A DNA stretch of 43,306 nucleotides from a virus (Duplodnaviria; Heunggongvirae; Uroviricota; Caudoviricetes): IMG/VR virus record IMGVR_UViG_3300025133_000025; one strand, given 5' to 3'. Positions within the stretch are counted from its first letter, which is position 1. Each line of letters opens with the position of its first letter. Shown here piece by piece: positions 16,326 through 42,331 of the stretch. A model generated the notes under the pieces. The model saw nothing but the letters and a program-made list of their open reading frames with translations. It had not been told where the DNA came from and ran no database searches. A program made the position numbers and the translations under genes.

Positions 16326-16372
16326 CCTGCCTCCAATATGTACATTGTATCACGCAGTTAAGGGCGTGGAAC

Positions 16373-16780: not shown

Positions 16781-16791
16781 CTCAACACTCT

Positions 16792-31144: not shown

Positions 31145-31294
31145 GTCCTGAAACGGAGCAATTGCTGGCCATTTTAAAAGAAATTGCCAGTACGGGTGAT
31201 TTACAAGAAGTTTATGATATTATGCCTGACTGCGGAGCTCCGCTGGACGCGGCGGTATGGAATTGGATTGAGGCAGGTTGCCCAGACGCTGATT
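31141..31294 (+). CDS. Possible small ORF (GTG start)
   Basis: GTGA overlap with the preceding stop; 51 aa ending at the TAG at 31292-31294, convergent with the kinase operon end. Confidence 0.25.
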
Positions 31295-32600
31295 AGTGAA
31301 AGCGAAACAGGCCAAGGTCAGCTGCGACAATTGCTCTGTCTGTCGGGCGAATAAGAACATTACCTCTATGCAAATCAACGAAGCGCATTCCATGTTTTTC
31401 GTACATGTAGTGAAGTGCATTCACAAGACCTGAGAGTCCTGACTTCTCCGCAGTTTTTTTCTGCATTTTCAAGATTGCATCCTGCGTTTCTGGATCTTTA
31501 CTTCCTTTAAAGTCTCTAGCAAAATACGCGCCAGCCTTATCAGCAATGCCATGTGCCTTCCAAGTTTGATGCTTGTCGTAACCCTTTGGCACAATCCCAG
31601 TTCGGACGCCAATCTTAACAGAGGCGTCCAGCCACTTTTTAAATTTAGGTATACCCTGTTCATTTTGCGACAGATCAGCAAATTTCCGCATATGCTGCGC
31701 GAAAGTCTCGGCGACCTTGTCACTAAGATTTAATGATTTGTAAAGCGCCTTAAGGATGATTGCAACCTTATCATCATCTTTCATTGCAATCCATAATAGA
31801 TCTTCTTTTGCTTCGCCATGCGGATTCTTTGGCCCCTTTGGGGCTTTTGGAATTTCCCATGGCTTTTCAATGCGTTTCAAATATTCACCAGCCTTGACAG
31901 CACCTGGAAGTTCATCAAGCTTCTCCATTAGAACAATGGGAAATTCTTTTCCAGTTCGCCTGATAAGCCAGACGCCATAAATCTTCGGAAAGTGTTTAGC
32001 GACATCTGGTGGCAATTGTTCATACAGGTTAGCAATGGTCTTATACGGTTCGATGTTGTCAGCACGGTTCGATGTGGGAATTTTTAATGCCATGGCCTGG
32101 CCGTTGTCAGGCATAAATTCAAAGACTGTGCCAAATGCACCGATGCCAAGAAAGGCGCCGACATCACCGGGCGGAAGAATCTTTTGCATGTGCCCTGAAA
32201 AAGCTTCGCCCTTTTCTTGACTAAAATATGTAGATGACGCACGCTTCAAGAAATCGTTTGAAAGATTAGCAGGGTTTTTCTTTGACGGCGTTTCAAGATC
32301 CGGATCGACGTAGATGGCGACTGCAGTCGGTTCCTGACCATGCTTTGTATCCAGGCTTCCACCCCTCCGCCGCCTCCTTCCGCCTACAGGCACTGTAGCT
32401 GGAAGTTCCTCTGCATTGATTGGACCGTGTGATGTAGGCGGCGTCTCAGGCCAGTCTTCCTTTTCTGCAACAAGGCCTGAATATTCCTTAACAACAGTTA
32501 CTGATATACTGTCAACATCATCATCTTCCTGATCATAGATATTTTCAATTACGCGATTGTAATTTTCAAGTGCGAGGAGCTGTGTTATTGTTGGAAACAT
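31293..32600 (-). CDS. Protein-kinase-like fold protein K1 (truncated ePK-like; ends 6 aa after the DLG)
   Basis: Gly-loop LGIGAFGTVFEF, AMALKI (VAIK-like Lys), catalytic loop VDLHRGNVLI, Mg-binding VAADLGLFRFH at the extreme C-terminus. Confidence 0.6.
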   Translation of the reverse strand: MFPTITQLLALENYNRVIENIYDQEDDDVDSISVTVVKEYSGLVAEKEDWPETPPTSHGPINAEELPATVPVGGRRRRRGGSLDTKHGQEPTAVAIYVDPDLETPSKKNPANLSNDFLKRASSTYFSQEKGEAFSGHMQKILPPGDVGAFLGIGAFGTVFEFMPDNGQAMALKIPTSNRADNIEPYKTIANLYEQLPPDVAKHFPKIYGVWLIRRTGKEFPIVLMEKLDELPGAVKAGEYLKRIEKPWEIPKAPKGPKNPHGEAKEDLLWIAMKDDDKVAIILKALYKSLNLSDKVAETFAQHMRKFADLSQNEQGIPKFKKWLDASVKIGVRTGIVPKGYDKHQTWKAHGIADKAGAYFARDFKGSKDPETQDAILKMQKKTAEKSGLSGLVNALHYMYEKHGMRFVDLHRGNVLIRPTDRAIVAADLGLFRFH

Positions 32601-33349
32601 TAGCGGAAAAGTCCAATATCTGAGACAACAAGCGATTTGTCAGTCGGGCGCACCATTATATTGCCGTGGTGCAGATCGTCAGGTTCGATATTCTGAAAAT
32701 CGATTAAATCTTCCATGGCATGATAGAACGTCGCCACACCTATGAACTCTGCAGTTGCAGCGTCAACATTTGACGTAAGGCTATAATCTGGTAGTTTGCC
32801 GGTTATAATCGCTTTACGCAGTAATTTCTCCATTTTGATCGGGAGAGGTTCAAGATATTCCATAAGGGTAATGACAAGACCTGAGTCAGGAATAAGCCAC
32901 GCTGCAGAAGGTCGACCTGATTCAGGAATAAGCCACGCAGCATAGATTTTCGGGAGGTGGCGGGCAGTTCCAGGCTTCGACGTGCCCTTTGCACGGGCCA
33001 CAAGTTTGTAAGCATCCGGCTCATCCTCACTGATTTTCAACGCCATCCTCGGCCCATGATCGGGAACGAAGTCCCAAACAACACCATAGGACCCCTGTCC
33101 AAGTACATCCTTGATTGTTCCTGCAGGCAAAAGTTGCTCCAGAGCAGACCTTACGTCAGCAGTGAAAATGCTATCGCGCGGAATACCATCAACATGCCCG
33201 GGTTCTGCAAGGGTCGGATCAACATAGATTTCTTTATATGCAAGATTTTGCACATGACCTGTTCGGGCACCTTGTTGTTCAAGCAATTGAACCATTGTAG
33301 GAAGCAGATCAATCATATTTGTAGAAGTTACCGATGTCAGCAACAACAA
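32600..33349 (-). CDS. Protein-kinase-like fold protein K2 (paralog; ends right after the DIG)
   Basis: LGQGSYGVVWDF, RMALKI, HLPKIYAAW, ITLMEYLEPLP, DDLHHGNIMVRPTD, VVSDIGLFR-stop. Confidence 0.6.
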   Translation of the reverse strand: MLLLTSVTSTNMIDLLPTMVQLLEQQGARTGHVQNLAYKEIYVDPTLAEPGHVDGIPRDSIFTADVRSALEQLLPAGTIKDVLGQGSYGVVWDFVPDHGPRMALKISEDEPDAYKLVARAKGTSKPGTARHLPKIYAAWLIPESGRPSAAWLIPDSGLVITLMEYLEPLPIKMEKLLRKAIITGKLPDYSLTSNVDAATAEFIGVATFYHAMEDLIDFQNIEPDDLHHGNIMVRPTDKSLVVSDIGLFR

Positions 33350-34283
33350 GGTGCCCGTCAGATTTACGAACCATTACATTATCATCATGCAAGTCCTGCC
33401 AGCTTATGCCATATCTTTCATGAATCTCTCTCAGCGCTTCGTAAAATGGCAGGATACCGAGAGATTCAAGTTTATCGTCACCTTCATCACCCAGGTTCTT
33501 CCAATGCGCACGAGATGTTGGAGTTATAGTGAGCATCGCCCGGTTATAATCAAACACATCAAGTGAGTTGTGCATTCTTGGCCCGGGCCTAATTCCAACC
33601 TCCTTGGCGGAATCAATAATCGCATCACGCAATCGAGCAGCCTGAGCATCATCCTCAAAATCATGGGGAGCGTTGAGGTTGTATGTTCGGCGAAGTCCTG
33701 CCACAGCGTGAGGCAATCGCTCTACCAATTCCGGCCGTGTTTCTGTATCAAGCAGGCCGAGGGTGATTCGCATAAGCCGGCCAACACGTTTATCACTTTG
33801 CACAAATTCTTCCCATGACATCCTATTTTCAGGATCCCCGCGGACCATGGCTGTCTTAATATTCTTTGGAAGCGGCGACAGGATTTCCATAAGCGTTATA
33901 ACAGTTTCTGTATCGACAGACCAAATGCCATAGATTTTCGGGAGGTGGCGAATCAGTTCCCGCGGCGCTGTGTCGTAAATCTTTTGAATTTCTTCGTAGG
34001 CCTCCGGCTCATCCTCACTGATTTTCAATGCCATCATAGGTCCATCGTCAGGCTTGAAACGGTAGACAGTACCAAATGAACCAGCGCCGAGGCGGGTCTC
34101 TACAACCCCGGGTGGCAGCACGTCAGCAAGGGGCGCCGGGGCGAGCCGATGTCCCCGAAGAAGACGAAGATCAACAGATCCTGGACCCTTGTTAATTTCC
34201 AGTTCTGGTGACACAAAGATTTCCTTTGTTGAAGCTGCCTTTGCAGCTTCAACAACCAGGGTTTTCATTGTGGGAAATGTCAT
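33309..34283 (-). CDS. Protein-kinase-like fold protein K3 (paralog)
   Basis: LGAGSFGTVYRF (canonical GxGxFGxV), MMALKI, HLPKIYGIW, ITLMEILSPLP, QDLHDDNVMV, VVADIGNFYKYD-stop. Confidence 0.6.
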   Translation of the reverse strand: MTFPTMKTLVVEAAKAASTKEIFVSPELEINKGPGSVDLRLLRGHRLAPAPLADVLPPGVVETRLGAGSFGTVYRFKPDDGPMMALKISEDEPEAYEEIQKIYDTAPRELIRHLPKIYGIWSVDTETVITLMEILSPLPKNIKTAMVRGDPENRMSWEEFVQSDKRVGRLMRITLGLLDTETRPELVERLPHAVAGLRRTYNLNAPHDFEDDAQAARLRDAIIDSAKEVGIRPGPRMHNSLDVFDYNRAMLTITPTSRAHWKNLGDEGDDKLESLGILPFYEALREIHERYGISWQDLHDDNVMVRKSDGHLVVADIGNFYKYD

Positions 34284-35326
34284 ACAAATTCACCGATGTC
34301 AGACACAACAACGTCGTTTGTTCCAGCGCGCATCATGATGTTATCTGTTTTAAGGTCATGCCAATCAACATTATGCTTACTTGATATATATTCGAGCGTC
34401 GCGTAAAATGTACGAAGACCTGTTTTGGAGAGATAGTCAAAGTGCCTTTCCATTTCCCTTGAATCCGTTGGTTTCGATGTAGGAAGCATAACAGCTGTGG
34501 CAGCAGCAGAAGTCCAGGTGTGGGACATGAACTGCGTTAAGCGTTTAATCTCACTCGCATGCTCGGGATGTAGTTGAACAAGGAGATTGGCGATGAGTCC
34601 GGCGAAGGCCTCGGCTTGGGCCTGTGTTGGAGGTGTTTCTGAAAATCTCCAGCGTTTTCGAATTTGCGGAATGAGCTCATCTGCAACGACAGCATAGAGG
34701 TTTGGAATGATGCTGTGTAGTCGAAAAATTCCCTCGTAAACGTATGCTGCAATATTTGCATCATCAGCAATCCATTTTGACCAGTCAGGTTCATGACCAT
34801 GATATTCTTCATATTCAAAGAATCCGTCAAGGGCGTTCTGAATGGAGATGGGGAGTTTGCTGAGATGTTCCATCAAAATTACTGTTAGGGTTGTATTCTG
34901 CAGGGCCAATTCCCAGACGCCGAAAATCTTTGGGAGGTGCCTGCTGTGCAGTTCAGGGAGTTGCCCACGAATGGCATATACGTCGTCGTATGGTTTGGTA
35001 TCGTCGTCACCGATTTTCACAACCATAAGCGGTCCGAAATCCGGTTTAAATTCAAAAACAGAGCTGTGCGCTCCAGCACCTACATATTCACCCACATCAC
35101 CTGGTGGTAAAACGTTTTGTAAGGTCTGGAACACTATTTTATCAACCCTGGGAACACCCAGGTGGTCAGTGGCCCGATCGGCTGTGCGAAGTGCGTCCTG
35201 GATGCTAACAGTGGATTTCGTGCCAGCTGGACGGATCTCGTCGCGGATAATTTCCTTGACCGCAATTTTGTTGTTGTCACCCCTGGGCGACAGTTCTGTC
35301 AACAGGTTATGCATTGTGGGGAGCAT
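34280..35326 (-). CDS. Protein-kinase-like fold protein K4 (paralog; start uncertain)
   Basis: VGAGAHSSVFEF, LMVVKI, HLPKIFGVW, VILMEHLSKLP, HDLKTDNIMM (compare HRDLKPEN), VVVSDIGEFV-stop. The start was set at the Met (MLPTMHN) at 35326; the open frame continues to 35806, but that part translates tandem DNA repeats. Confidence 0.5.
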   Translation of the reverse strand: MLPTMHNLLTELSPRGDNNKIAVKEIIRDEIRPAGTKSTVSIQDALRTADRATDHLGVPRVDKIVFQTLQNVLPPGDVGEYVGAGAHSSVFEFKPDFGPLMVVKIGDDDTKPYDDVYAIRGQLPELHSRHLPKIFGVWELALQNTTLTVILMEHLSKLPISIQNALDGFFEYEEYHGHEPDWSKWIADDANIAAYVYEGIFRLHSIIPNLYAVVADELIPQIRKRWRFSETPPTQAQAEAFAGLIANLLVQLHPEHASEIKRLTQFMSHTWTSAAATAVMLPTSKPTDSREMERHFDYLSKTGLRTFYATLEYISSKHNVDWHDLKTDNIMMRAGTNDVVVSDIGEFV

Positions 35327-35402
35327 AACATATATAGTGTCCACGCTGCCATCTATGCCATGGTGTTTCGTGGCAACGATTTTTTCCAGAAATTTTTGTG
35401 CT

Positions 35403-35486
35403 GGCAGGGCTGTTCTGGTGGTGCAATCCTGGCAGAGCTGTTCTGGTGGTGCAATCCTGGCAGAGCTGTTCTGGTGGTGCAAATTC
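35403..35486. repeat. 28-bp tandem direct repeat x3 (GGCAGAGCTGTTCTGGTGGTGCAATCCT)
   Basis: Three head-to-tail copies; copy 1 has 1 mismatch and copy 3 diverges in its last 5 nt. Confidence 0.85.
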
Positions 35487-35698
35487 TCGAGAAGTTGTGC
35501 AGAGGCGTTGCGCGGCTTCGAGGCCTTTCTAAATCTCCAACAACCTATCTGAGGCCTTTCCGCAGGCCCTCGCCGGCCCGAGCTGGGTTGCGCCGACGGG
35601 CGGCTAGAAGGTCCCAACCTGGTATGGAAAGGCCCTGAGGGTGGTGTGGGGCAGGCCTTTCCATGGCGCCAGCACCAAGGCATGCCGTGCCGGCGAGG

Positions 35699-35806
35699 GC
35701 CTATCTTTCCGCAGGGCCTCCGACCACAAGATAGGTCTATCTTTCCGCAGGGCCTCCGACCACAAGATAGGCCTATCTTTCCGCAGGGCCTCCGACCACC
35801 AACCAC
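35699..35806. repeat. 36-bp tandem direct repeat x3 carrying the CTTTCCGCAG promoter upstream box
   Basis: GCCTATCTTTCCGCAGGGCCTCCGACCACAAGATAG x3. A fourth partial unit continues into promoter P1. Further degenerate copies of GGCCTTTCC(G/A) lie at 35554 and 35656. Confidence 0.85.
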
Positions 35807-35814
35807 GGTCTAGC

Positions 35815-35843
35815 TTTCCGCAGCACCACCGCCTTGGTATATT
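35815..35843 (+). promoter_or_regulatory. Cassette promoter P1: TTTCCG-N17-TATATT with TGG upstream (extended -10)
   Basis: gcTTTCCGcagcaccaccgcctTGGTATATT; 17-nt spacer; about 65 nt upstream of the ATG at 35910. Confidence 0.6.
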
Positions 35844-35909
35844 AATAACATAAGGGGCACGGACCAACCGGCAATAAAGCTGGAAGGCCGGCCCCCTGGA
35901 GATACTATC

Positions 35910-36299
35910 ATGGCCAAGTGGAACCCCAGCTCGAAGGTGAACCAGAGCCACCTCCTGACCATCCTGCGCCGCGGCGGCAACGAGTACCTCGACATCGTCG
36001 AGCGCCTCTCCCACCGGGCCCAGAAGCCCAACGGTCCTGACGGCCTGAACGTGACCATCATCCGGGATGCGATCGAGCAGGGCTACCTCGCTACGGATGC
36101 TGAGGCCATCCTGTTCCCCTCCGAGGAGAACGTGAACAAGGCCAAGGTGGCCGCGGCCGAGGATGCCAAGGCGACGATGATCGACAACCTCCTGGAGCTC
36201 GGGCAGCAGGGAGCGGTCAACGCGATGATCCAGGCGGGGACGGTCAGCGCGGAGCTGGTCGCCGGCATCGAGGCCAGCCGGGCCGCCGAAGAGGCCTAG
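35910..36299 (+). CDS. MAK-family small protein, paralog 1 (unknown function)
   Basis: 129 aa; MAKWNPSSKVNQSH N-terminus shared with 3 other cassette ORFs; SD GGAGA 9 nt upstream; about 65% GC. Confidence 0.65.
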   Translation: MAKWNPSSKVNQSHLLTILRRGGNEYLDIVERLSHRAQKPNGPDGLNVTIIRDAIEQGYLATDAEAILFPSEENVNKAKVAAAEDAKATMIDNLLELGQQGAVNAMIQAGTVSAELVAGIEASRAAEEA

Positions 36300-36307
36300 G
36301 CCTGACA

Positions 36308-36336
36308 GGGCCGGCGGGGGCAACACCCGCCGGCCC
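36308..36336 (+). terminator. GC-rich hairpin (11-bp stem) after cassette 1
   Basis: GGGCCGGCGGG-gcaacac-CCCGCCGGCCC; no U-tract, so this may be an intrinsic-terminator variant or a processing/recombination site. Confidence 0.4.
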
Positions 36337-36393
36337 ACCCGTCTGGAGCTGGTCTCACCGGTCCTCAACCTCTCGGCTCCTCCACCCGGAGGG

Positions 36394-36413
36394 CCGAAGG
36401 TCCGGACCTTCGG
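36394..36413. repeat. Perfect 20-bp palindrome CCGAAGGTCCGGACCTTCGG
   Basis: Exact inverted repeat with no loop, in the inter-cassette spacer. Confidence 0.8.
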
Positions 36414-36469
36414 AGCCTAGGCTTTCCGCAGCCCTGCTGCCTAGGCCTTACAGCGTGGGCTGAGCTGGC

Positions 36470-36498
36470 TTTCCGCGGCACCACTGAAATGGTACAAT
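36470..36498 (+). promoter_or_regulatory. Cassette promoter P2: TTTCCG-N17-TACAAT with TGG upstream
   Basis: ggcTTTCCGcggcaccactgaaaTGGTACAAT; a near-duplicate of P3 including the downstream AAGGACGG(A/T)GGCCA. Confidence 0.6.
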
Positions 36499-36556
36499 AT
36501 AATTACAAGGACGGAGGCCATCATACAGATGGGCTGCCGATCCGACTGGAGCCACC

Positions 36557-36967
36557 ATGGCCAAGAAGAACCGCTGGAACCCCTCCTCCAAGGTCAACTG
36601 CAACCACGTCACGGGCATGCTCGCCAAGGGCACGGCGGAGTACAAGGACTGGGTCGGCCGGGCCTTCTCCGTCCCCGCCGACGCCGACGCCGAGTACTTC
36701 GAGGACATCATCCGCGAGGGCCACGAGGACGGCTACCTCACCGATGAGAATGTGGACACCCTGCTGGGTACGGGCCCCTCGACGAAGGACGTCCAGGCCG
36801 CCGCCGCCGGCAACGCCCAGGCCCAGATGATCTCCGGGCTGGCCAACGCCGGGCAGCACAGCGCGGTGGCCTCCATGATCGGCACGACCGTCTCGCAGGA
36901 CCAGGTCGACCAGGTCTACGAGGCGCTCAACCTGGACTTCGCCGCCTTGACCGCGCCGGAGGCCTAG
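36557..36967 (+). CDS. MAK-family small protein, paralog 2
   Basis: 136 aa; MAKKNRWNPSSKVNCNHVTGMLAKG...; the overlapping +/- ORFs at 36489-37024 are rejected as GC artefacts. Confidence 0.65.
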   Translation: MAKKNRWNPSSKVNCNHVTGMLAKGTAEYKDWVGRAFSVPADADAEYFEDIIREGHEDGYLTDENVDTLLGTGPSTKDVQAAAAGNAQAQMISGLANAGQHSAVASMIGTTVSQDQVDQVYEALNLDFAALTAPEA

Positions 36968-37049
36968 CCGGCCCAACCCTTCGCCCCGAGCACCATCGAA
37001 GCCATCGGCTACTAGCACCACCACAGTCGGCCTAGCAGGGAGGAGACTC

Positions 37050-37088
37050 TCTGTTAGGCCGGCCTAACAGCGACTGAGCAGCTCAGTC
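37050..37088. repeat. Two adjacent perfect palindromes (CTGTTAGGCCGGCCTAACAG; CGACTGAGC-a-GCTCAGTCG)
   Basis: A 20-bp exact palindrome followed directly by a 19-bp one, in the spacer after cassette 2. Confidence 0.8.
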
Positions 37089-37097
37089 GATTTAAGG

Positions 37098-37126
37098 TTT
37101 CCGCCGCACCACCGACTTGGTATAAT
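37098..37126 (+). promoter_or_regulatory. Cassette promoter P3: TTTCCG-N17-TATAAT with TGG upstream
   Basis: ggTTTCCGccgcaccaccgactTGGTATAAT. Confidence 0.6.
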
Positions 37127-37187
37127 TTAGGTATAAGGACGGTGGCCACCAAAACGGTGAATCACTGCTCCCGTTGGAGAATGAGAC

Positions 37188-37622
37188 ATGGCCAAGAAGA
37201 ACCGCTGGAATCCTGCCTCGCGTGTCAACTGCAACCACCTCACGGGGATGCTCCTGAAGGGCGACGACGCGTACCGGGACTTCGTCTCCCGCGCCTTCTC
37301 CGCCGCCCCCGAGGAGTTCGAGGCGATCGTCCAGGAGGGCCTCGACTGGGGGTACTTCACCTCGGACAACCGGGACGCCTTGCTCGGCACCGGCCCCTCC
37401 ACGGCCGCGATCTCGGAAGCCGCGGCGGGCAACGCCCAGGCGACGATGATCTCCGGCCTCGCCAACGCCGGCCAGCACAGCGCGGTGGCCTCCCTCGTCG
37501 CCGCCGGGACCTGCACCCAGGACCAGGTCGACCAGGTGTACGGCGCCTTGGAGCTGGACTACGCGGCCCTGATCGCCCCGCCGGCCCCCAAGGCGCCCAA
37601 GGCCAAGAAGGCCGCCAAGTAG
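37188..37622 (+). CDS. MAK-family small protein, paralog 3
   Basis: 144 aa; MAKKNRWNPASRVNCNHLTGMLLKG...; SD GGAGA upstream; Lys-rich C-terminal tail PKAPKAKKAAK. Confidence 0.65.
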   Translation: MAKKNRWNPASRVNCNHLTGMLLKGDDAYRDFVSRAFSAAPEEFEAIVQEGLDWGYFTSDNRDALLGTGPSTAAISEAAAGNAQATMISGLANAGQHSAVASLVAAGTCTQDQVDQVYGALELDYAALIAPPAPKAPKAKKAAK

Positions 37623-37642
37623 CCTAGCCGGCTGCCACTGAC

Positions 37643-37667
37643 GGACCGGCCCCTCCTGGGCCGGTCC
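37643..37667 (+). terminator. GC-rich hairpin (10-bp stem) after cassette 3
   Basis: GGACCGGCCC-ctcct-GGGCCGGTCC; followed by GGCCTTACAGCG and GGCCTAACAGCG half-site copies. Confidence 0.4.
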
Positions 37668-37767
37668 ACCGGCTGGGCCTTACAGCGTGAGCTGCGCGAA
37701 CGCTGATAGTCCTCTCTGAGCCGGCCTAACAGCGCGGGCTGAGCCCGCCGTCACAGTGCCACGAGGC

Positions 37768-37796
37768 TTTCCGCAGCAGGCCAACCATGGTATAAT
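37768..37796 (+). promoter_or_regulatory. Cassette promoter P4: TTTCCG-N17-TATAAT with TGG upstream
   Basis: ggcTTTCCGcagcaggccaaccaTGGTATAAT. Confidence 0.6.
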
Positions 37797-37829
37797 TTAG
37801 GTACCGGAATTGACCGGCTGGAGAACCCC

Positions 37830-38531
37830 ATGATCGATGCACTTACAATCTTCAACGCTTCCACGGATCGGCGGACCTACTGGCGCCTGAATCGTGAGGC
37901 GGGCGCTGCTACCCTGGATGAGGCGATCGCCTTGACCTGGGAGGACTTCTACCCGTACGAGCACATGCCCCAGGATGACGCCATCAACATGGATGGCATG
38001 GACGACATCTTCGAGGTCGGTGGACCGGAGAACATGGAGATCGTGACCCACGGCGGCGGGTGGTTCACCGTGGAGTACAAGAACGGTTGCTCCCAGGAGG
38101 AGGACACCCGCGACCACCCGGAGGAGTGGAACCAGTGGGAACAGGTCACCCGCCTCGTCAGCCAGGACTACCTCACCTTGGAGCGTGGGTTCACCGTCCT
38201 GGACGATACCCCGGCCGGCCACGGCGACGAGTTCGGTCGGATCTACTGGGTGATCGGCGACACCACGGAGCCGGGGACGGTCGATCGGAAGCCCAAGGTG
38301 CTCACCGGTGATGAGGTCATCGAGCGGTCGATCAAGGAGGGCATCCGGTCCGACCTCGAGTTGGAACAGCAGGTCCTGCCGCCGGTCGATCACCGGTGGA
38401 ACGACATGATGATGCAGAGCGCCGCCCTGGACATCCTGGCTGGTGTGACCATGGCCAGCATCCGCTACCACAGCTACGACGCCTGGGAGGATGTGGAGAT
38501 GCTGACCCGCCACTTCCACGGCAAGATCTAG
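37830..38531 (+). CDS. Acidic hypothetical protein (233 aa) in the cassette array
   Basis: SD GGAGAA upstream; D/E/W-rich; no family recognised; the antisense ORF 37797-38555 is rejected. Confidence 0.6.
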   Translation: MIDALTIFNASTDRRTYWRLNREAGAATLDEAIALTWEDFYPYEHMPQDDAINMDGMDDIFEVGGPENMEIVTHGGGWFTVEYKNGCSQEEDTRDHPEEWNQWEQVTRLVSQDYLTLERGFTVLDDTPAGHGDEFGRIYWVIGDTTEPGTVDRKPKVLTGDEVIERSIKEGIRSDLELEQQVLPPVDHRWNDMMMQSAALDILAGVTMASIRYHSYDAWEDVEMLTRHFHGKI

Positions 38532-38576
38532 AAGCCTCACCAGCTGGCTCAGCACCTGCGGCCTGGGGTAGCCTGG

Positions 38577-38598
38577 GCCGTAAGGCCGGCCTTACGGC
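38577..38598. repeat. Perfect 22-bp palindrome GCCGTAAGGCCGGCCTTACGGC
   Basis: Exact inverted repeat centred on GGCCGGCC, in the spacer after cassette 4. Confidence 0.8.
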
Positions 38599-38653
38599 GA
38601 AGAACAGCTCAGCCCCTCCCTTTCCTCCATACTTGGAAGCACAGACCGGCATG

Positions 38654-38682
38654 TTTCCGATGCATGACCGCCATGGTATAAT
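38654..38682 (+). promoter_or_regulatory. Cassette promoter P5: TTTCCG-N17-TATAAT with TGG upstream
   Basis: gTTTCCGatgcatgaccgccaTGGTATAATatattAGGAACCCC; a near-duplicate of P8. Confidence 0.6.
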
Positions 38683-38763
38683 ATATTAGGAACCCCGGCC
38701 GGTTGAATCAATGCCATGGCAGATGGCTGTCATGGCAACTGGCCACCTACTACAGGAAGTGAC

Positions 38764-39591
38764 ATGAACTGGAATAGCATCGCAAATGACCTTGACATCT
38801 GGAACAGTGGTGGGAAGATGAAGGCGACGATCTCGCTCTTCTTGAACAGCCCCGGCATCAGCCACGCCCTGTACATCATCTTCCTCGCTGTCTACGGTGG
38901 CTGGAACATGTTGTCGACCGCCGCGCTCCGCCAGGAGCCTGGCCCGTCGGCGTCCCAGAAGTACGAGTTGACCGACTACGTCAACAAGGACACCATCCTC
39001 AGCATCGTCAACGACGCCCGTCAGAAGGCCTGGAGCGATCTGGAGATCAGTGGTATCATGCCCGAGTGGAAGGTGGGCGGCATGGCGGAGCCGGCCTGCG
39101 CGATCCGGCCGGGCGAGGACAATCCAACCCTTGTCTTCAACAAGATCCAGTTCATCAAGCAGGTGCGTGAGGCCCACGGCTTGGGACTGAAGGAAGCGAA
39201 GAAGGCTGTGGAAGACATGTTGGTGCAGGCTTCCGGGCTCGTCGCCTTCCGTGGAGTCCGTGGGAAGCTCATTGAGCACATGCCGACGACTTTCCTCCAC
39301 ATCACGAACGTCCACATCAATCTCGACGAGCTCGTCTCCCTGCCCATCAACTATCGGCCGCATGCCTACGAAGGAGAGCGCAGGTCGCGTGACAACTCGA
39401 CCAGCGATGACACCTTCTACACGGTGGGGTGGTACTGGGAGAACGTGCTCTCCTTCGAGAACAAGCGACTCTTCCGGAGCTTGGACCACTTCCGAAGCAC
39501 GTCCATCGCAGTGAAGCGGCGCGCCCAGTACCTCAACCACGAGGGTGCCTGGGTTTACGTCGATGATGTCGCCACCGAAATCCTTGCCTGA
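38764..39591 (+). CDS. Membrane-anchored protein with a ribosomal bL12 (L7/L12) C-terminal-domain-like segment
   Basis: The start was chosen at MNWNS (SD AGGAAG 5 nt upstream); the longer frame starts at 38716. TM helix [45 protein letters not shown] aligns to E. coli bL12 [26 protein letters not shown] (GLGLKEAK identical). Confidence 0.55.
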   Translation: [275 protein letters not shown]

Positions 39592-39613
39592 GTGAAGGGG
39601 TTCCTCGGCGAGG

Positions 39614-39653
39614 GGCCCTGGGCCTGCTGTCTTCGGATGGCAGGCCCAGGGCC
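39614..39653 (+). terminator. GC-rich hairpin (14-bp stem) after cassette 5
   Basis: GGCCCTGGGCCTGC-tgtcttcggatg-GCAGGCCCAGGGCC. Confidence 0.45.
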
Positions 39654-39693
39654 TATTAGCGCTTCGCGCCGAAGGCCCCAAGACGCAGCTGGC

Positions 39694-39722
39694 TTTCCGC
39701 CGATCTACCGTGTTTGTATAAT
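39694..39722 (+). promoter_or_regulatory. Cassette promoter P6: TTTCCG-N17-TATAAT (TG adjacent)
   Basis: ggcTTTCCGccgatctaccgtgtttgTATAAT; downstream ATAAGGGGCGC resembles the P1 leader. Confidence 0.55.
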
Positions 39723-39743
39723 AATACTATAAGGGGCGCAGGT

Positions 39744-39759
39744 GCTGAAATATTTCAGC
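39744..39759. promoter_or_regulatory. Perfect 16-bp palindrome GCTGAAATATTTCAGC in the P6 leader (operator-like or leader hairpin)
   Basis: Exact inverted repeat about 15-30 nt downstream of the predicted TSS and 25 nt upstream of the SD; a second CTGAAA...TTTCAG palindrome lies at 40265. Confidence 0.45.
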
Positions 39760-39794
39760 AGTTGTTATAAACAGCCCCGACATGGAGAGAAGAC

Positions 39795-40190
39795 ATGGCT
39801 AAGAACCGCTGGAACCCTTCGAGCAAGGTCAACTGCAATCACATCACCGGGATGATCGCCAAGGGTGACGCCGAGTACAAGGACTGGGTCGCCCGGATCT
39901 TCGGCTCGAACAACGACACCTTCGCCGACCTGGTGACCGAGGGCAAGACCGCGGGCTACCTCACCGCCGAGAACTCCAACTTCCTGCTGGGCACGTCGGC
40001 CAGCACCCCGGCTGTGAAGGCGGCCGCCGCGGCCGACGCCAAGCGCAGCATGGTCATCGGCCTGCTGGGTGCGGGACAGGACACGGCGGTCGATTCGCTG
40101 ATCCAGTCCGGGCAGGTGGACCAGGAGTTCGTCGACAGCATCCGCGCGGAAATCGTGGATGCTGAGGAAGCTCGCCGCTCGTCGAAGTAG
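39795..40190 (+). CDS. MAK-family small protein, paralog 4
   Basis: 131 aa; MAKNRWNPSSKVNCNHITGMIAKGDAEYKDWVARIFG...; SD GGAGAG upstream. Confidence 0.65.
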   Translation: MAKNRWNPSSKVNCNHITGMIAKGDAEYKDWVARIFGSNNDTFADLVTEGKTAGYLTAENSNFLLGTSASTPAVKAAAAADAKRSMVIGLLGAGQDTAVDSLIQSGQVDQEFVDSIRAEIVDAEEARRSSK

Positions 40191-40198
40191 AGAAACGC

Positions 40199-40226
40199 CA
40201 GGCCGGGGGCTTCGGTCCCCGGCCGT
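40199..40226 (+). terminator. Hairpin GGCCGGGGGC-TTCG-GTCCCCGGCC (UUCG-type loop) after cassette 6
   Basis: 8-10-bp GC stem immediately after the stop; a CCGTACGG palindrome and a GCTGCTTTT run follow. Confidence 0.5.
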
Positions 40227-41238
40227 ACGGCGCTGCTTTTCAAAGCTCTTCGGCGCAGCCAGCGCTGAAAGACCGGTCTTTCAGAGAAAGCAGCTGAGCC
40301 CGCAGTCCTGGCCACAGCTCCCTGCCTGGCAACATTCCGACGCTGTCCAGCTTTCGGCAGCCTACATCACCTTCCGATGCGGCTCAGCACTGCAATGTGC
40401 TGAAAAGACTGCAATTTTGCTGCCCACTGCCCTGCCGATGCTGAATGTGAGATTCGAGGCATCTGCTCTTCGCTGCAGCAATCATATGAATACTATGCCC
40501 ATCCCGGTTTTTCACTATACCCGCCGGGATAGAAAGCAGGCTGGCCCATGCGCTGGCCTCGGCAGCCCATCGATGCAGCGGAAGCAGACGGTGTGGCGCT
40601 ATGATATCATTCCCAGCAAAACGCCACCAGACCTGCCGTGCCGCGACGCTCTGCGCTCTCCCTTCGCAACTCTGCTCCCGGCTTCTGGCGCTGCGCTCTG
40701 TAGTTGCGGGCACCACTCCACCCATTCTTGTTAGGCTTGAAAACCTTATCAGGCCATCTCGTCAGCTCCCATTTTGTGAGTTTGCATATGAATCAGTAGC
40801 GCCAGCTGTTCTTCCCTATTTGCAATGTGAAGAGCTGCTCAGTGTTGTCCGAGCTGTAGACATTTTGTTGTGTGATGTTAAAGGCTTAGGGCTCTGCTGC
40901 TGTCCCTGCAGCGTTGCTCCACCCCGCAGCGCCAAAGCAGGGAAACAGCATATGCTGATATCATAAAGCACACAGAGCTTACAGCACCAGCAGAGAAACG
41001 AGGTTTAGGAGTTGGGAGTTGTGGTATAGAACCTATCCTATTGGAGTCTATTGGTTTATCTGTTAGTTAGTTGTTGGTTCTGATACCATCAAAGGCACGT
41101 TGTATTGTAGCAAGAGTATATGAATGAGGCTGCCCAGCATTTCCGGCTGACCAAATTGGTAGGCTGCAGGGCAAGCCGCGTGAGTTCGGACTGTTGGATT
41201 GCAGTCCTGATGATATCTTCTGGCAACATCCACAGTAA
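40227..41238. other. About 1-kb apparently non-coding region with palindromes (candidate structured RNA or decayed cassettes)
   Basis: Only low-complexity R/S/P/C-rich ORFs on either strand (40159-40734, 40601-40966, 40384-40725). Contains the CTGAAAGACCGGTCTTTCAG palindrome and several short hairpins. GC is intermediate. Confidence 0.4.
40265..40284. repeat. Perfect 20-bp palindrome CTGAAAGACCGGTCTTTCAG
   Basis: Exact inverted repeat; shares CTGAAA/TTTCAG arms with the 39744 palindrome. Confidence 0.8.
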
Positions 41239-41266
41239 TTTCCGTGTATGAATTCACTGTTATAAA
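41239..41266 (+). promoter_or_regulatory. Cassette promoter P7: TTTCCG-N16-TATAAA with TGT upstream
   Basis: aaTTTCCGtgtatgaattcacTGTTATAAAat; AT-rich context. Confidence 0.5.
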
Positions 41267-41304
41267 ATAGAAATAGGTGAGAATGTTCCACCGAGGAGAT
41301 AAGC

Positions 41305-41604
41305 ATGAGCGATAACAGGGACTTCCCAACGATTCGTCGCCTGATTGGTGTCATTGAGGACGCATCTTCTGCTGAGCAGATTATCCTCAACAACAGGGTT
41401 TTGGGCGATCACCTCGGCGGAATTATCCGCATTCGGAATGAGGGCGTGATCAGGAATCTCTACTTTGGCAACGCATCCTCCGAAGGCGCCCTCGATGCTT
41501 TGATTGCGCTTGTTGAAGCTATTCGATCCGAAGCTGCCCACGAATTGGCTGGGCAGGGTGTGGATGTCAGGCCGGTTTCAGATGCAACGAAGATTTCCGA
41601 CTAA
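41305..41604 (+). CDS. Hypothetical protein (99 aa)
   Basis: SD GAGGAG 7 nt upstream; the stop overlaps the -35 box of P8. Confidence 0.55.
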   Translation: MSDNRDFPTIRRLIGVIEDASSAEQIILNNRVLGDHLGGIIRIRNEGVIRNLYFGNASSEGALDALIALVEAIRSEAAHELAGQGVDVRPVSDATKISD

Positions 41605-41622
41605 CAACCGCCATGGTATAAT
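41594..41622 (+). promoter_or_regulatory. Cassette promoter P8: TTTCCG-N17-TATAAT with TGG upstream
   Basis: aTTTCCGactaacaaccgccaTGGTATAATatacctAGGAACCCCC; a duplicate of the P5 module. Confidence 0.6.
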
Positions 41623-41657
41623 ATACCTAGGAACCCCCAACCCAAGCGAGTACTAAC

Positions 41658-42032
41658 ATGGCCGCCCGCACACTTTCCGACCGCTTCTCAGAGTTCATCC
41701 ACTTCGAGTACGGTGATGGCAACGGACGACTGAACCTGCTCGAAGAGGCCATCAAGCGAGTAGATGAGCCCCATTACGCGCAGAACAACTCACACTACTA
41801 TGTGCGACCCGACGGATCATGGGGAGCTCGCCCGCCGCTCTCGATGGGGCCGCGCGACTCGTACGAGTCGCGCGGCGGGATGCCGGCTTTGACATACGAT
41901 CCGAAGTATGTCTTCTGGCCCGAGGACGGATTCGTGTACGTGCGGTCGCGTGAGGCTGCTATCGAGCTCGTGACGATCATGGTCCTCCACAACGCCCGCA
42001 TCGCGGTGCGGGTGCTGGAAATCATGTCCTGA
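41658..42032 (+). CDS. Hypothetical protein (124 aa), GC-rich
   Basis: ORF directly downstream of P8; about 58% GC; weak SD. Confidence 0.5.
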   Translation: MAARTLSDRFSEFIHFEYGDGNGRLNLLEEAIKRVDEPHYAQNNSHYYVRPDGSWGARPPLSMGPRDSYESRGGMPALTYDPKYVFWPEDGFVYVRSREAAIELVTIMVLHNARIAVRVLEIMS

Positions 42033-42331
42033 TGAACTATAATCCACTGAACGAAAACCCGGAGTACTGGCGCATGGATAGTGTGAGACTTCGAAGAGGC
42101 GATTTGGTAAGCGTTACTTACAACGGACGCAATGGATCAACTGTAGGGTTTTTTAAGGCAGAAATCCTTAGCGTATTTAAGAATACTTCTCTGGTTCGCT
42201 TTGAAGATAAGATTGCTCCGGACTATCCAGACGACACTTGGAACCCAGACCTTGGCTACCACTTTGTCGATTCAGACCGAGGCTATGTGGACGAAGTTAC
42301 GAACGATTCACTCATCCGCGTTGGGCTATAA
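42032..42331 (+). CDS. Hypothetical protein (99 aa)
   Basis: TGATG stop/start overlap with the preceding gene. Confidence 0.5.
   Translation: MNYNPLNENPEYWRMDSVRLRRGDLVSVTYNGRNGSTVGFFKAEILSVFKNTSLVRFEDKIAPDYPDDTWNPDLGYHFVDSDRGYVDEVTNDSLIRVGL

Follow-up and report, generated by a model that had tools for sequence, protein, structure and literature searches.

In a window of 43,306 nucleotides, the whole stretch of phage DNA analysed here, a row of small GC-rich genes lies between genes of much lower GC content. This raises the question of how these genes are expressed, and whether their composition reflects import from a high-GC donor, as an earlier note had proposed, or a property maintained at this locus.

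The genome, with a size of about 175 kb and a GC content of about 42%, is that of an uncultured, myovirus-like phage. Its closest cultured relatives, Microcystis phage Mel-JY01 and the Flavobacterium 'immuto' phages, share 31-36% protein identity; strictly speaking, the phage is not T4-like. Upstream, a kinase-like gene on the minus strand is separated from the array by a divergent intergenic region, while ordinary operon organisation resumes after ORF 8. The array appears to be the beginning of a rightward early-gene block.

Promoters, leaders and hairpins

The motif TTTCCG-N14-18-GTAYAAT has six exact matches, all on the plus strand between 36.4 and 41.6 kb (0.01 expected by chance), and P1 and P7 raise the promoter total to eight. 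Thus, eight promoter modules of the type TTTCCG-N17-TATAAT are present, all on the plus strand and each followed by a leader and a small ORF, as described earlier (Table 1). Calling them near-identical was an overstatement, since identity over 40 nt is 63-73%. The proposed pairs were recovered: P2 and P3 have the leader ATAAGGACGG(A/T)GGCCA in common, P1 and P6 share ATAAGGGGC, and P5 matches P8 (19 identical bases plus the leader start TAGGAACCCC). When spacers are compared in pairs, their longest exact matches are 7-19 nt; identity of this length between modules is a weak substrate for homologous recombination.

The TTTCCG box agrees with TTGACA at only three of six positions, and a standard sigma-70 scan detected none of the eight array promoters. 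In 10 sources, which represent at least five phage lineages, the class was found 37 times, without exception on the strand of the early genes. At other places in the same phage (L021), early genes of ordinary GC content are also under its control; the promoter class is therefore the phage's own and not restricted to the array. Additional boxes with a -35 sequence only suggest a dedicated recognition factor; in the relatives L001 and L012, the box ahead of the subtype II promoter is conserved. The natural variant L006 has lost 134 nt exactly between two CTTTCCGCAGG boxes, and one end-point of this deletion is the first CTTTCCGCAGG box. The -35 element of P1 represents a fourth CTTTCCGCAGGGCCTC box in register with the 36-nt repeat (spacing 36, 36, 37), which is present in 3, 2 or 1 copies across samples; of the 28-nt repeat, a further sample of this phage (L004) has two copies.

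A GGAG-type Shine-Dalgarno sequence precedes seven of the eight starts, whereas none is convincing at P8. Of 17 leaders, 14 have a predicted 5′ stem-loop at the same position, with z values mostly from -2 to -5 and with differing stem sequences. The stem-loop of leader 1 starts about 5 nt past the putative start of transcription, and the GGAGA sequence stays free.

Regarding the hairpins or palindromes noted after the six GC-rich ORFs, a strong GC hairpin follows all six; however, compared with shuffled sequences only four spacers beat every shuffle (z -3.8 to -4.5), while two fold marginally or not at all better (z -1.9 and -0.05). What follows each of these ORFs is a GC hairpin lacking a U-tract, a GGCCTWAC(A/G)GCG palindrome or half-site, or both. 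Half-sites are indeed shared: GGCCTWACRGCR has five exact copies, all on the plus strand inside the array, and ten matches versus 0.77 expected when one mismatch is allowed. Because of the missing U-tracts, a standard terminator scan did not detect the array hairpins, and termination at them is uncertain. The gene-free segment upstream of P7 showed no reading-frame signal, contains the inverted repeat TATGATATCA (40600-40609) / TGATATCATA (40956-40965), and may be a conserved RNA or DNA element.

Table 1. Features of the cassette array in window coordinates.
Feature	Position	Strand	Remarks
28-nt tandem repeat, 3 copies	35401..35484	.	divergent intergenic region before array
First CTTTCCGCAGG box	35556..35571	+	-35 element sequence without -10
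36-nt tandem repeat, 3 copies	35698..35805	+	each with CTTTCCGCAGGGCCTC box
Promoter P1	35815..35843	+	TTTCCG-N17-TATATT
5′-proximal stem-loop, leader 1	35854..35895	+	-27.4 kcal/mol, z -4.0
ORF 1, 129 aa	35910..36299	+	paralogue subtype I (MAKWNPSSKVN...), GC3 0.93
GC hairpin after ORF 1	36308..36336	+	11-bp stem, no U-tract
Perfect palindrome CCGAAGGTCCGGACCTTCGG	36394..36413	+	same type in L001, L009, L012
-35-only CTTTCCGC box, then half-site GGCCTTACAGCG	36422..36455	+
Promoter P2	36470..36498	+	TTTCCG-N17-TACAAT, TGG in front
5′-proximal stem-loop, leader 2	36509..36543	+	GGACGGAGGCCAUC... type, z -2.4
ORF 2, 136 aa	36557..36967	+	paralogue subtype II, GC3 0.98
17-bp hairpin, palindrome, half-site GGCCTAACAGCG, second hairpin GACTGAGCAGCTCAGTC	37026..37089	+	z -4.3
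Perfect palindrome CTGTTAGGCCGGCCTAACAG	37051-37070	+	overlapped by 17-bp hairpin
Promoter P3	37098..37126	+	TTTCCG-N17-TATAAT, extended -10 TGG
5′-proximal stem-loop, leader 3	37137..37171	+	z -2.0
ORF 3, 144 aa	37188..37622	+	paralogue subtype II, GC3 0.97
GC hairpin and direct half-sites	37643..37734	+	hairpin 37643-37667; GGCCTTACAGCG (37676), GGCCTAACAGCG (37723)
Promoter P4	37768..37796	+
ORF 4, 233 aa ('X')	37830..38531	+	ORFan, GC3 0.88
GC hairpin and palindrome CCGTAAGGCCGGCCTTACGG	38557..38597	+	palindrome 38578-38597
Promoter P5	38654..38682	+
ORF 5, 275 aa from SD-preceded ATG	38764..39591	+	291 aa from 38716; ORFan, GC3 0.82
GC hairpin after ORF 5	39613..39654	+	19 bp, no U-tract, z -4.5
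Promoter P6	39694..39722	+
5′-proximal stem-loop, leader 6	39733..39778	+	z -5.4
ORF 6, 131 aa	39795..40190	+	paralogue subtype III, GC3 0.90
GC hairpin GGCCGGGGGC-TTCG-GTCCCCGGCC, then GTACGGCG	40201..40232	+	GTACGGCG: half-site tail variant
Gene-free segment, ~1 kb	40233..41238	.	conserved in L001 and L012
Promoter P7	41239..41266	+	weaker variant, TTTCCG-N16-TATAAA
ORF 7, 99 aa	41305..41604	+	ORFan, GC3 0.57
Promoter P8	41594..41622	+	-35 within ORF 7 end; no hairpin upstream
ORF 8, 124 aa	41658..42032	+	ORFan, GC3 0.77; ATGA overlap with next ORF

Cassette proteins and related arrays

Four of the six GC-rich ORFs (ORFs 1, 2, 3 and 6) are paralogues of one all-helical ORFan family with the signature MAK..WNPxSxVNxxHL..., which is confined to this phage clade. 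At the DNA level, the paralogues are only 65-78% identical. ORF 3, 67% identical to ORF 2, is a lineage-specific tandem duplicate. The N-terminal ~80-115 residues of ORF 4 and its leader type ACCGG..CCGGCTGGAG are conserved in L001, L009 and L012, and a short motif of ORF 5 matches a portion of the C-terminal domain of ribosomal L7/L12. No cargo homologue, including members of the paralogue family, was found among 185,579 species genomes of bacteria and archaea, cultured phages and IMG/VR. Among 5.8 billion proteins, neither the family nor the 233-aa and 275-aa proteins have relatives outside the phage clade, the latter two matching only themselves. An exhaustive profile search of 1.84 billion representatives yielded about 15 full-length family members; all those traced are located on related phage contigs. 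By position and architecture, we infer that the cassette proteins may be immediate-early products with a role in host takeover or anti-defence.

Three diverged relatives (L001/L009, L012 and L026) have the same promoter class and also a GC jump, while their cassette sets differ by whole-cassette duplications and indels. The arrays of L001, L009 and L012 share promoter, leaders and palindromes with that of the window, but cassette order and content differ. Module-level differences, as anticipated for related genomes, were thus seen between diverged relatives but not among genomes with 99.7-99.98% identity, in which only tandem-repeat copy number varies and cassette indels are absent. The paralogue subtypes I, II and III are common to several lineages and are older than the lineage split; because subtype orthology spans lineages, the family diversified inside the clade.

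In PeSL units, a stem-loop directly precedes a -35/N17/-10 promoter, behind which come a Shine-Dalgarno sequence and ATG, and the units recur between small ORFan genes (PMC4122927, PMC2839356). This matching anatomy, together with the whole-cassette differences between relatives, supports the suggested PeSL-like architecture; in the PeSL arrays of T4-type phages, too, whole units are duplicated, lost and inserted during evolution.

Base composition and the origin of the GC-rich DNA

Sliding 500-nt windows revealed a sharp contrast between 58-67% GC at 35.5-40.5 kb and 36-49% for most of the window. The rest does not uniformly have the value of about 40% given earlier, because of a second, milder island at 15.7-19.1 kb in a glycan module; nor does that value apply to the promoter segments (41-52% GC). 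The promoter cores remain AT-rich. The GC3 bias was confirmed, with 0.82-0.98 in ORFs 1-6 (35910-40190) versus 0.26-0.54 in backbone ORFs. In the array, the third codon position is occupied by C (0.53), G (0.37), T (0.07) and A (0.02). The AAA codon accounts for 0% in the array versus 46% in the backbone; a tRNA-Lys(UUU) reading it is present in a related phage. The only T-ending codons left are GAT, GGT, CGT, AAT, CCT and GCT, and their depletion is very uneven across amino acids (GAT 0.27 vs TTT, TCT and TGT 0.00), a pattern resembling a cellular high-GC codon dialect rather than a uniform bias. Non-coding spacers between cassettes are also GC-rich (0.62-0.71 vs 0.18-0.49 in backbone gaps), and codon positions 1 and 2 are slightly GC-enriched. 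The paralogues have the highest GC3 within arrays at any position, and traced family members are more GC-rich than their neighbours wherever neighbours are present; a further family copy in the same genome has a backbone-like GC3 of 0.49.

The discontinuity occurs at the same locus across lineages with 36-58% protein identity. GC3 reaches 0.75-0.96 in the L001 and L012 arrays (L012 flank 0.47), 0.77-0.88 in the family members of L026/L027 (flank 0.40-0.60) and 0.68 in that of L028 (flank 0.31-0.54). Identity between flanking proteins of the window and those of L012 is only 36-45%; synonymous sites are therefore saturated, yet the GC contrast persists.

Recent horizontal acquisition of unameliorated cargo from a high-GC bacterium or phage would agree with the sharp step and with a codon usage as expected of a cellular genome of ~65-70% GC; moreover, the glycan-module island shows that this phage does hold atypical DNA, and the early region has more scattered GC-rich cassettes farther along (L021 2775-3756, 5674-5952). 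Still, such an import is improbable in view of the lack of outside homologues in the genomes and protein sets searched, the restriction of traced family members to related phages, the diversification inside the clade and the copy with low GC3. Because the discontinuity is old and conserved, the proposed high-GC donor is unsupported. A GC-rich fragment of another organism, mis-joined into the phage contig, has next to no probability: in several cases, public assemblies do end at or close to the borders of the array (L005 covers exactly 35742-42103), and a long contig terminates inside it, but both junctions were assembled independently from different ENA, Logan and JGI samples with different pipelines (99.7-99.98% identity), so that the array is not a chimera. 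Furthermore, AT-rich phage promoters are interleaved with the GC-rich ORFs and continue into ordinary-GC genes, and relatives show the same arrangement, which refutes a chimeric assembly.

The consensus sequences of integron core and inverse-core sites are GTTRRRY and RYYYAAC. Palindrome CTGTTAGGCCGGCCTAACAG holds both 7-mers, and the palindromes lie between small ORFs of one orientation, as in an integron-like array or CALIN (attC cluster without integron integrase) with GTTAGGC/GCCTAAC palindromes serving as tyrosine recombinase sites. This reading is very improbable, since each cassette carries a promoter, unlike the usually promoterless cassettes of integrons, the 7-mers adjoin each other as R'-R'' instead of lying 50-130 nt apart as R''...R', GCCTTAC, the sequence at half of the sites, does not fit RYYYAAC, the bulged L-box structure was not seen, and no integrase gene is present in the 43-kb window or the next 17 kb. 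GC-biased gene conversion at a recombination hot spot, with repeated modules, paralogues or co-infecting relatives as partners, would push all sites towards G/C, in line with the GC-rich spacers and codon positions 1 and 2, the multi-copy paralogues being the most GC-rich genes, and the tandem duplications and repeat-mediated length variants of the locus. We consider it unlikely as the explanation, because a uniform process does not predict the uneven depletion of T-ending codons, the diverged paralogues are a poor conversion substrate and promoter cores stay AT-rich; to our knowledge, there is no established case in phages.

A row of putative early transcription units

Altogether, an array of autonomous early transcription units with PeSL-like evolution, whose GC3 has long been maintained rather than recently imported, is the explanation we favour, with somewhat better than even confidence. 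Each self-contained unit would begin with the phage-specific promoter (C)TTTCCG(C)-N17-(TGG)TATAAT, presumably read by host RNA polymerase via the extended -10, while sigma region 4 or an accessory factor may recognise the TTTCCG box. The transcript would open with AUAA about 7 nt downstream and continue with the 5′-proximal stem-loop, which may protect the 5′-end; next would come a GGAG Shine-Dalgarno sequence that is left free and the small ORF. The GC hairpin without U-tract, ending GGCC-TTACAGCG, may act as terminator or 3′-end stabiliser and insulate the unit. We infer transcription starts, timing and termination from the sequence. The cargo would comprise the helical ORFan family in four of six units and otherwise clade-specific ORFans, one with the L7/L12-like motif, and whole units would be duplicated, lost and inserted.

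The extreme GC3 is a long-maintained property of the locus, strongest in the paralogues, rather than a mark of recent import. Candidate maintaining forces are host-matched codon usage, properties of immediate-early mRNA, or biased gene conversion. Codon selection alone is insufficient, because other early genes under the same promoter class have a GC3 of 0.43-0.6 and the array spacers are GC-rich. Precedents for codon adaptation of early or leading regions exist (PMC5683454; bioRxiv 10.1101/2025.04.03.647016). We tentatively prefer selection for codon usage and/or mRNA properties matching a putative GC-rich host, by which the GC-matched first genes would be translated efficiently before the rest of the genome, which is AT-rich, takes over.

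Genome, composition and expression signals of the array

The array at 35.4–42 kb is a real and well-delimited feature, a PeSL-like series of putatively autonomous cassettes with predicted early genes in a new phage lineage. Clade-restricted paralogous ORFans predominate in it, and it lies in a conserved GC3-rich domain with sharp borders; what surprises most is that this compositional discontinuity has been maintained over the long term. Window sequence was found at 99.7–99.98% identity in independent assemblies (two contigs each from ENA, Logan and JGI, the ENA pair being k141_178795 of ERZ27249139 with 175,726 bp and another with 170,388 bp). Because these agree, an assembly chimera was ruled out, and the genome is that of a real phage of ~175 kb. 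Its closest cultured phages, Microcystis phage Mel-JY01 and the Flavobacterium 'immuto' phages, share just 31–36% protein identity. The baseplate wedge protein matched T4-like PHROGs just weakly, and PHROG matches were absent for most structural ORFs. Judged from these comparisons, the phage represents a distinct myovirus-like lineage that is not T4-type in the strict sense. Against a collection of 50,697 phage records, megablast with the array and tblastn with one paralogue and one kinase-like neighbour gave zero matches.

The window consists of a long minus-strand block, which encodes a baseplate-wedge homologue, large glycosyltransferases, a PD-(D/E)XK-type exonuclease and four kinase-like paralogues, and of a plus-strand block with small genes. 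The kinase-like genes (weak protein-kinase-like matches) are arranged in tandem immediately left of the array and form a second paralogous family bordering the divergent intergenic region. Two such genes, 36–45% identical to those of the window, are located at the corresponding place in L012, a diverged relative.

The compositional contrast described in the earlier note was confirmed, as 500-nt windows at 35.5–40.5 kb contained 58–67% GC compared to 36–49% elsewhere. Also, the GC3 bias proposed for the cargo was found in the six GC-rich ORFs at 0.82–0.98, as compared to 0.57 and 0.77 for the last two ORFs of the array and 0.26–0.54 for the backbone. Third codon positions in the array were C 0.53, G 0.37, T 0.07 and A 0.02, and in the backbone C 0.17, G 0.19, T 0.37 and A 0.28. 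The T-ending codons left in the array are mostly GAT, GGT, CGT, AAT, CCT and GCT, while TTT, TCT, TGT, ATT, GTT and ACT are nearly lacking, and lysine is encoded by AAG in 100% of cases. The spacers are GC-rich too (0.62–0.71), hairpin stems making up much of that, and codon positions 1 and 2 show a slight GC increase. The uniform GC content of ~40% assumed for the remaining window did not hold, since a second, milder GC island is present. This island shows intermediate codon usage shifted in the direction of the array and belongs to a sugar-nucleotide/glycan module with a cupin, a PfkB kinase, two cytidylyltransferase-like genes, a GT1/GT4 glycosyltransferase, a sulfotransferase and two large ORFs (423 and 1,080 aa) with glycosyltransferase PHROG matches. 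For its 266-aa ORF, searched with regard to host or donor, no close relative was found in GTDB genomes.

The promoter pattern TTTCCG-N14-18-GTAYAAT had six exact matches, all on the plus strand in the array, versus 0.01 expected. Together with P1 (TATATT) and P7 (N16, TATAAA), the eight promoters proposed before were thereby obtained. Seven of the eight modules combine an N17 spacing with a TG-extended TATAAT −10, and a GGAG-type SD is located 6–9 nt before the ATG in seven of the eight units. The −35 TTTCCG agrees with TTGACA at 3/6 positions, and a sigma-70 consensus scan missed all eight promoters. The module pairs P2/P3, P1/P6 and P5/P8 were recovered; P5 and P8, which precede unrelated ORFs, have promoter and leader in common. 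'Near-identical', the term used for the modules in the earlier note, was too strong; they are 63–73% identical over 40 nt with exact spacer matches of 7–19 nt, and conservation is at the motif level. With a relaxed pattern, 37 instances were detected across ten sources, every one on the early-gene strand, with the consensus cTTTCCGc.gc.c..CCG.c.t.G-TATAAT-a.a..tA.aAGG. Seven instances precede ordinary-GC early genes in L021, the continuation of the same 175-kb contig, and in the more distant relative L026 the family is served by the variant ATTCCG-N17-TATAAT. The TTTCCG promoter class thus distributed is the phage's own. A DNA pattern of promoter plus leader had 0 matches in IMG/VR.

For folding of the leaders, a transcription start ~7 nt after the −10 was assumed. 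Given this start, 14 of 17 leaders begin with AUAA and carry a stem-loop directly after it (z mostly −2 to −5); its distal stem sequence varies by cassette, its position is constant and the GGAG is unpaired. These structures were seen when leaders were folded singly, and RNAalifold gave no consensus for the aligned leaders because the hairpins are out of register. In bacterial mRNA decay, 5′-terminal stem-loops guard against 5′-end-dependent attack by RNase E/J, and the leader stem-loops may provide such protection.

All six GC-rich ORFs have a strong GC hairpin after them, as had been noted. The shared half-sites also stood, with five exact copies of GGCCTWACRGCR, all on the plus strand in the array, and ten matches versus 0.77 expected when one mismatch was allowed. 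U-tracts are absent from the hairpins. Hairpins or palindromes are located 30–160 nt upstream of the −35 at P2–P6, and P1, P7 and P8 are without one; a terminator role is putative. The hairpin tail reads GGCC-TTACAGCG. In L001, an array of a diverged relative from the FUCH22-1 metagenome, the ATG of one cassette lies 6 nt past the TATAAT box, so that its mRNA would be leaderless. Taken with strong GGAG SDs, extended −10 promoters and U-less hairpins, this is reminiscent of actinobacterial gene expression, a likeness that is no more than a lead to the host.

Another element is extra −35-type boxes that lack a −10. The box sequence CTTTCCGC occurs nine times; three of these copies are located inside a 36-nt tandem repeat in register with the −35 of P1, and one precedes the subtype II promoter by ~48 nt, a position kept in L001 and L012. 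The box suggests reading by a protein, beyond sigma region 4 alone. Among near-identical phages from other samples (L003, L004, L006, L007; 99.7–99.98% identical), differences are confined to two repeat regions. The copy number of the 36-nt repeat is 3, 2 or 1 and that of a 28-nt repeat 3 or 2, and L006 has a 134-nt deletion with end-points exactly at two CTTTCCGCAGG boxes, assembly collapse being possible in these cases.

Locations of the features in the window and in related loci
Feature	Location	Strand	Remark
Minus-strand block	window 0.6–26.6 kb, 31.3–35.3 kb	minus	
Sugar-nucleotide/glycan module	window 13.6–25.3 kb		
Second GC island	window 15711–19094	minus	GC3 0.60–0.70
266-aa ORF in second GC island	window 17248–18048		no Pfam match
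Kinase-like paralogues	window 31293–35326	minus	n = 4
Repeat regions with population variants	window 35401–35484, 35556–35805		
CTTTCCGC boxes	window 35.55–39.7 kb	plus	
Block of small genes	window from 35.9 kb	plus	
Six GC-rich ORFs	window 35910–40190		GC3 0.82–0.98
Paralogues among these	ORFs 35910, 36557, 37188, 39795		
Genes replaced by antisense calls	window 36557–36967, 37188–37622		
Antisense calls	L003 10612–11112, 11183–11569 (= window 36521–37024, 37092–37478)	minus (window)	
275-aa ORF	window 38764–39591		
L7/L12-like motif FNKIQFIKQVREAHGLGLKEAKKAVED	window 39136–39216		residues 125–151
Gene-free segment	window 40191–41238; L001 5009–5777; L012 5880–6815		
Inverted-repeat arms	window 40600–40609, 40956–40965		~350 nt apart
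Cassette with ATG close to −10	L001 2463–2477		
Extra GC-rich genes	L021 2775–3756, 5674–5952		GC3 0.76–0.89
Fifth paralogue	L021 7100–7498		GC3 0.49
Sixth, distant paralogue	L021 13963–14388		GC3 0.66
tRNA-Lys(UUU)	L028 2393–2468		among early genes

Cargo proteins, related arrays and gene-free segment

Of the six GC-rich ORFs, four form a paralogous family with 33–67% identity and the invariant N-terminal signature M-A-..-W-N-P-x-S-x-V-N-x-x-H. An AlphaFold2 model of a paralogue was confident (pLDDT 87) and all-helical, and no informative structural neighbour of it was found. A word-indexed search of 5.8 billion proteins yielded eight family members, and an exhaustive profile search of 1.84 billion representatives about 15 full-length members. 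In IMG/VR, JGI metagenomes and GTDB species genomes only the phage's own contig was hit, no member was found in cultured phages, and all members traced are located on related phage contigs. Also, no relatives outside the clade were obtained for the 233-aa ORFan X and the 275-aa protein. Pfam, PHROG and PADLOC scans of the eight cargo ORFs gave only a partial L7/L12 motif above threshold. By these searches, all cargo proteins are ORFans outside the clade.

The L7/L12-like motif of the 275-aa protein is identical to residues 68–94 of Thermotoga L7/L12 at 18/27 positions and matches Pfam PF00542 (bL12 C-terminal domain) with an E-value of 1.5e-7 and 32.1 bits (cut-off 25.9). It is kept in the L012 homologue. 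Unlike bL12, the protein matches only profile positions 11–36 of 67, and the motif is set in an otherwise unrelated ORFan without the N-terminal stalk-binding domain. An interaction of this protein with the translation machinery would be speculation.

Further along the early region in L021, which lies at the start of the 175-kb contig, a fifth paralogue with a TTTCCG-class promoter immediately upstream, a sixth, distant paralogue with such a promoter ~100 nt upstream and extra GC-rich genes were detected. Two long proteins with L(V)xxGTITQEQAD-type repeats (P0019, P0020) weakly match the C-terminal part of the family profile, which hints that the C-terminal helix pair of the family could be a short, widespread repeat module. 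In L003, the recorded gene calls are antisense ORFs in place of two true GC3-rich genes, an error that can leave genes of this kind out of protein databases.

The arrays of L001, L009 (both FUCH22-1) and L012 are homologous to that of the window; the left border, the promoter, three leader types and the palindromes GCTGTTAGGCCGGCCTAACAGC, CCGTAAGGCCGGCCTTACGG and GAAGGACCGGTCCTTC are common to them. Their cassette sets are not the same, the order being I-II-II'-X-L12-III in the window, I-II-X-IV-L12-III-[100 aa] in L012 and I-I'-[104]-[68]-[67]-X-II-II'-[87] in L001 (Roman numerals, paralogue subtypes; L12, the 275-aa protein). Because cassette orders differ, subtypes I, II and III occur across lineages and tandem duplicates are lineage-specific (II/II' with 67% identity in the window, I/I' in L001), the array evolves as entire units from promoter to hairpin are duplicated, lost or inserted. 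Such whole-unit differences were seen only between deeply diverged genomes, and genomes with 99.7–99.98% identity have the same cassette content.

After the last paralogue, a gene-free segment of ~1 kb is conserved in three lineages with no reading-frame signal. It contains an inverted repeat kept via compensatory changes (TATGATATCA/TGATATCATA in the window, CTCTACGATATCAA/TTGATATCGTAGAG in L001) and an AT-rich tail with GAGTT(T)AG repeats. MFE z-scores were inconsistent (−1.8, −3.3 and +0.6), and therefore a structured RNA is not claimed. Rfam gave no match over the window at gathering thresholds or over 40150–41320 at E ≤ 1, and an nhmmer search of all fetched loci, started from the alignment of the three sequences, added no homologues. 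L025, the single IMG/VR contig matching the DNA pattern of the segment, was rejected as a chance match in a coding region of a high-GC prophage. L026 and L028, a further locus with a family member, have long gene-free stretches of different sequence after the family gene, with (T)GATATCA palindromes. For the conserved segment, two readings are possible: a structured RNA, which could be a read-through 3′ region, and a DNA element, for example an operator or an origin.

Comparison with known systems

PeSLs are defined by a stem-loop just upstream of a −35/N17/−10 promoter followed by SD and ATG, located between small ORFans, and their −35 hexamers are phage-specific, with TTTACW in T4/PST and TTGYVH in KVP40/nt-1 (Arbiol et al. 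2010, PMC2839356; Comeau et al. 2014, PMC4122927). The PeSL-like architecture proposed in the earlier note agrees with this definition in motif order, clustering between ORFans and association with indels. At P2–P6 the stem-loop is upstream of the promoter in the same intergenic motif, SD and start codon of a small ORFan gene form the 3′ end of the motif, and the motifs are clustered in a variable region in a single orientation together with −35-only 'half' elements. Whole-cassette differences between related genomes and a phage-specific −35 are further common traits; the −35 hexamers published for PeSLs likewise depart from TTGACA. In contrast to PeSLs, the array is not located in a T4-type (Tevenvirinae-like) genome, its −35 TTTCCG comes with conserved positions in the spacer and an extended −10, and its predicted transcripts have a conserved 5′ stem-loop leader. 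Also, long GC hairpins or perfect palindromes with the GGCC-TTACAGCG tail take the place of the stem-loop, an AT-rich upstream block is absent, inter-module identity is just 7–19 nt, and a cargo GC3 of 0.8–0.98 in a genome at 0.3–0.45 is not a described PeSL feature. Indirect signs bearing on recombination between motifs are the deletion in L006, the copy-number variants of the repeats and the common promoter and leader of P5 and P8. By this comparison, the array would work like a PeSL array outside the T4-type PeSL set, with putative recombination at the motifs.

An integron/attC array or CALIN was considered due to GTTAGGC/GCCTAAC. Small co-oriented ORFs with imperfect or perfect palindromes between them and GTTRRRY/RYYYAAC-like 7-mers are common to both. 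An attC site comprises ~57–141 nt with R''(RYYYAAC) and R'(GTTRRRY) inverted at both ends and bulged L boxes, whereas the 7-mers of the array are adjacent in perfect palindromes of 20–22 nt or occur as single direct half-sites, several of them reading GCCTTAC. Integron cassettes are promoterless and rely on a common Pc, with integrase and attI close by in a full integron, whereas every array cassette has its own promoter, and neither the scanned ORFs of the window nor those listed for L021 include a recombinase or integrase. This candidate was rejected on architecture, promoters and the lack of an integrase.

Codon usage unlike that of the remaining element is described for early phage genes (Mioduser et al. 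2017, PMC5683454) and for the first-entering leading regions in conjugative plasmids (Shaw et al., bioRxiv 10.1101/2025.04.03.647016), and was read as adaptation to the translation of a naive host and as a means of fast anti-defence expression. The array resembles them in that the codon usage of the putatively first-expressed genes is unlike the rest. It differs in a far larger and sharply bounded contrast (GC3 difference ~0.5) that includes the spacers and is limited to part of the early region.

Origin, upkeep and meaning of the GC-rich state

An import of the cargo from a high-GC donor, as suggested in the earlier note, is not supported, given the lack of homologues outside the clade and the presence of the island with the same composition in diverged relatives. 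Array GC3 is 0.81–0.96 in L012 compared to 0.47 in two flanking genes, and 0.75–0.95 in L001. The family has 0.77–0.88 in L026 and L027 (another family locus) versus 0.40–0.60 downstream, and the lone member in L028 has 0.68 against a background of 0.31–0.54. Between window and L012, array orthologues are 44–58% identical, as compared to 36–45% for the flanking kinase-like proteins. Orthologous DNA is only ~65–70% identical, so that synonymous sites are saturated, and the discontinuity appears to be old. The contrast is kept in every lineage, where a relic of import should decay, which indicates either a persistent force on the locus or recurrent import from a never-sampled reservoir.

For a persistent force, host-matched expression of the first-expressed genes would be the likeliest cause, although the preference is weak. 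Selection on expression is favoured by the paralogues being the strongest-biased genes within each array regardless of position, by leftover T-ending codons that look like a cellular high-GC codon dialect instead of a uniform bias, and by the published precedents of early versus late phage codon differences (PMC5683454) and plasmid leading regions (bioRxiv 10.1101/2025.04.03.647016). The tRNA-Lys(UUU) of the related phage L028 points the same way when set beside the exclusive AAG of the array, as it fits an AT-rich phage topping up a host pool poor in A-ending decoders. However, the GC-rich spacers, the slightly raised GC at codon positions 1 and 2 and the other early genes, which are not GC3-rich under the same promoter class, argue against pure codon selection, and GC-biased conversion at a recombination-prone multi-copy locus therefore stays a serious rival to host-matched expression. 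Regional causes are also possible; the locus may evade AT-directed silencing or defence, or its transcripts may resist AU-directed RNases.

A broader reading is put forward tentatively, and we regard it as rather doubtful as a whole. According to it, a low-GC marine and freshwater myovirus clade would keep a sharply bounded 'isochore' with GC3 of ~0.9–0.98 around its first early genes in the long term by selection and not by import, the MAK..WNPxSxVN proteins would be a new immediate-early host-takeover/anti-defence class, the promoters would be a new class with a dedicated TTTCCG factor, and the 1-kb segment would be a new structured RNA or origin-like element of the same module. The benefit of such an isochore could be translation from the GC-adapted tRNA pool of a naive host, mRNAs withstanding AU-directed decay, or DNA evading AT-targeted silencing or defence.

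As a practical lesson, the antisense calls for two GC3-rich genes imply that such arrays are under-represented in protein databases. The new promoter class with its conserved 5′ stem-loop leader may be of use for early-gene annotation in this uncultured clade, and the ORFan paralogue family and the L12-motif protein are candidates for host takeover. The PeSL idea of self-contained promoter-terminator cassettes as shuffling units would reach past T4-type phages. If the GC-rich state is selected, the locus would be an unusually clean natural experiment on an early-gene 'dialect': one genome carries the same family at GC3 0.49, 0.66 and >0.9, which makes translational matching, mRNA stability and escape from AT-targeted silencing or defence directly testable alternatives.
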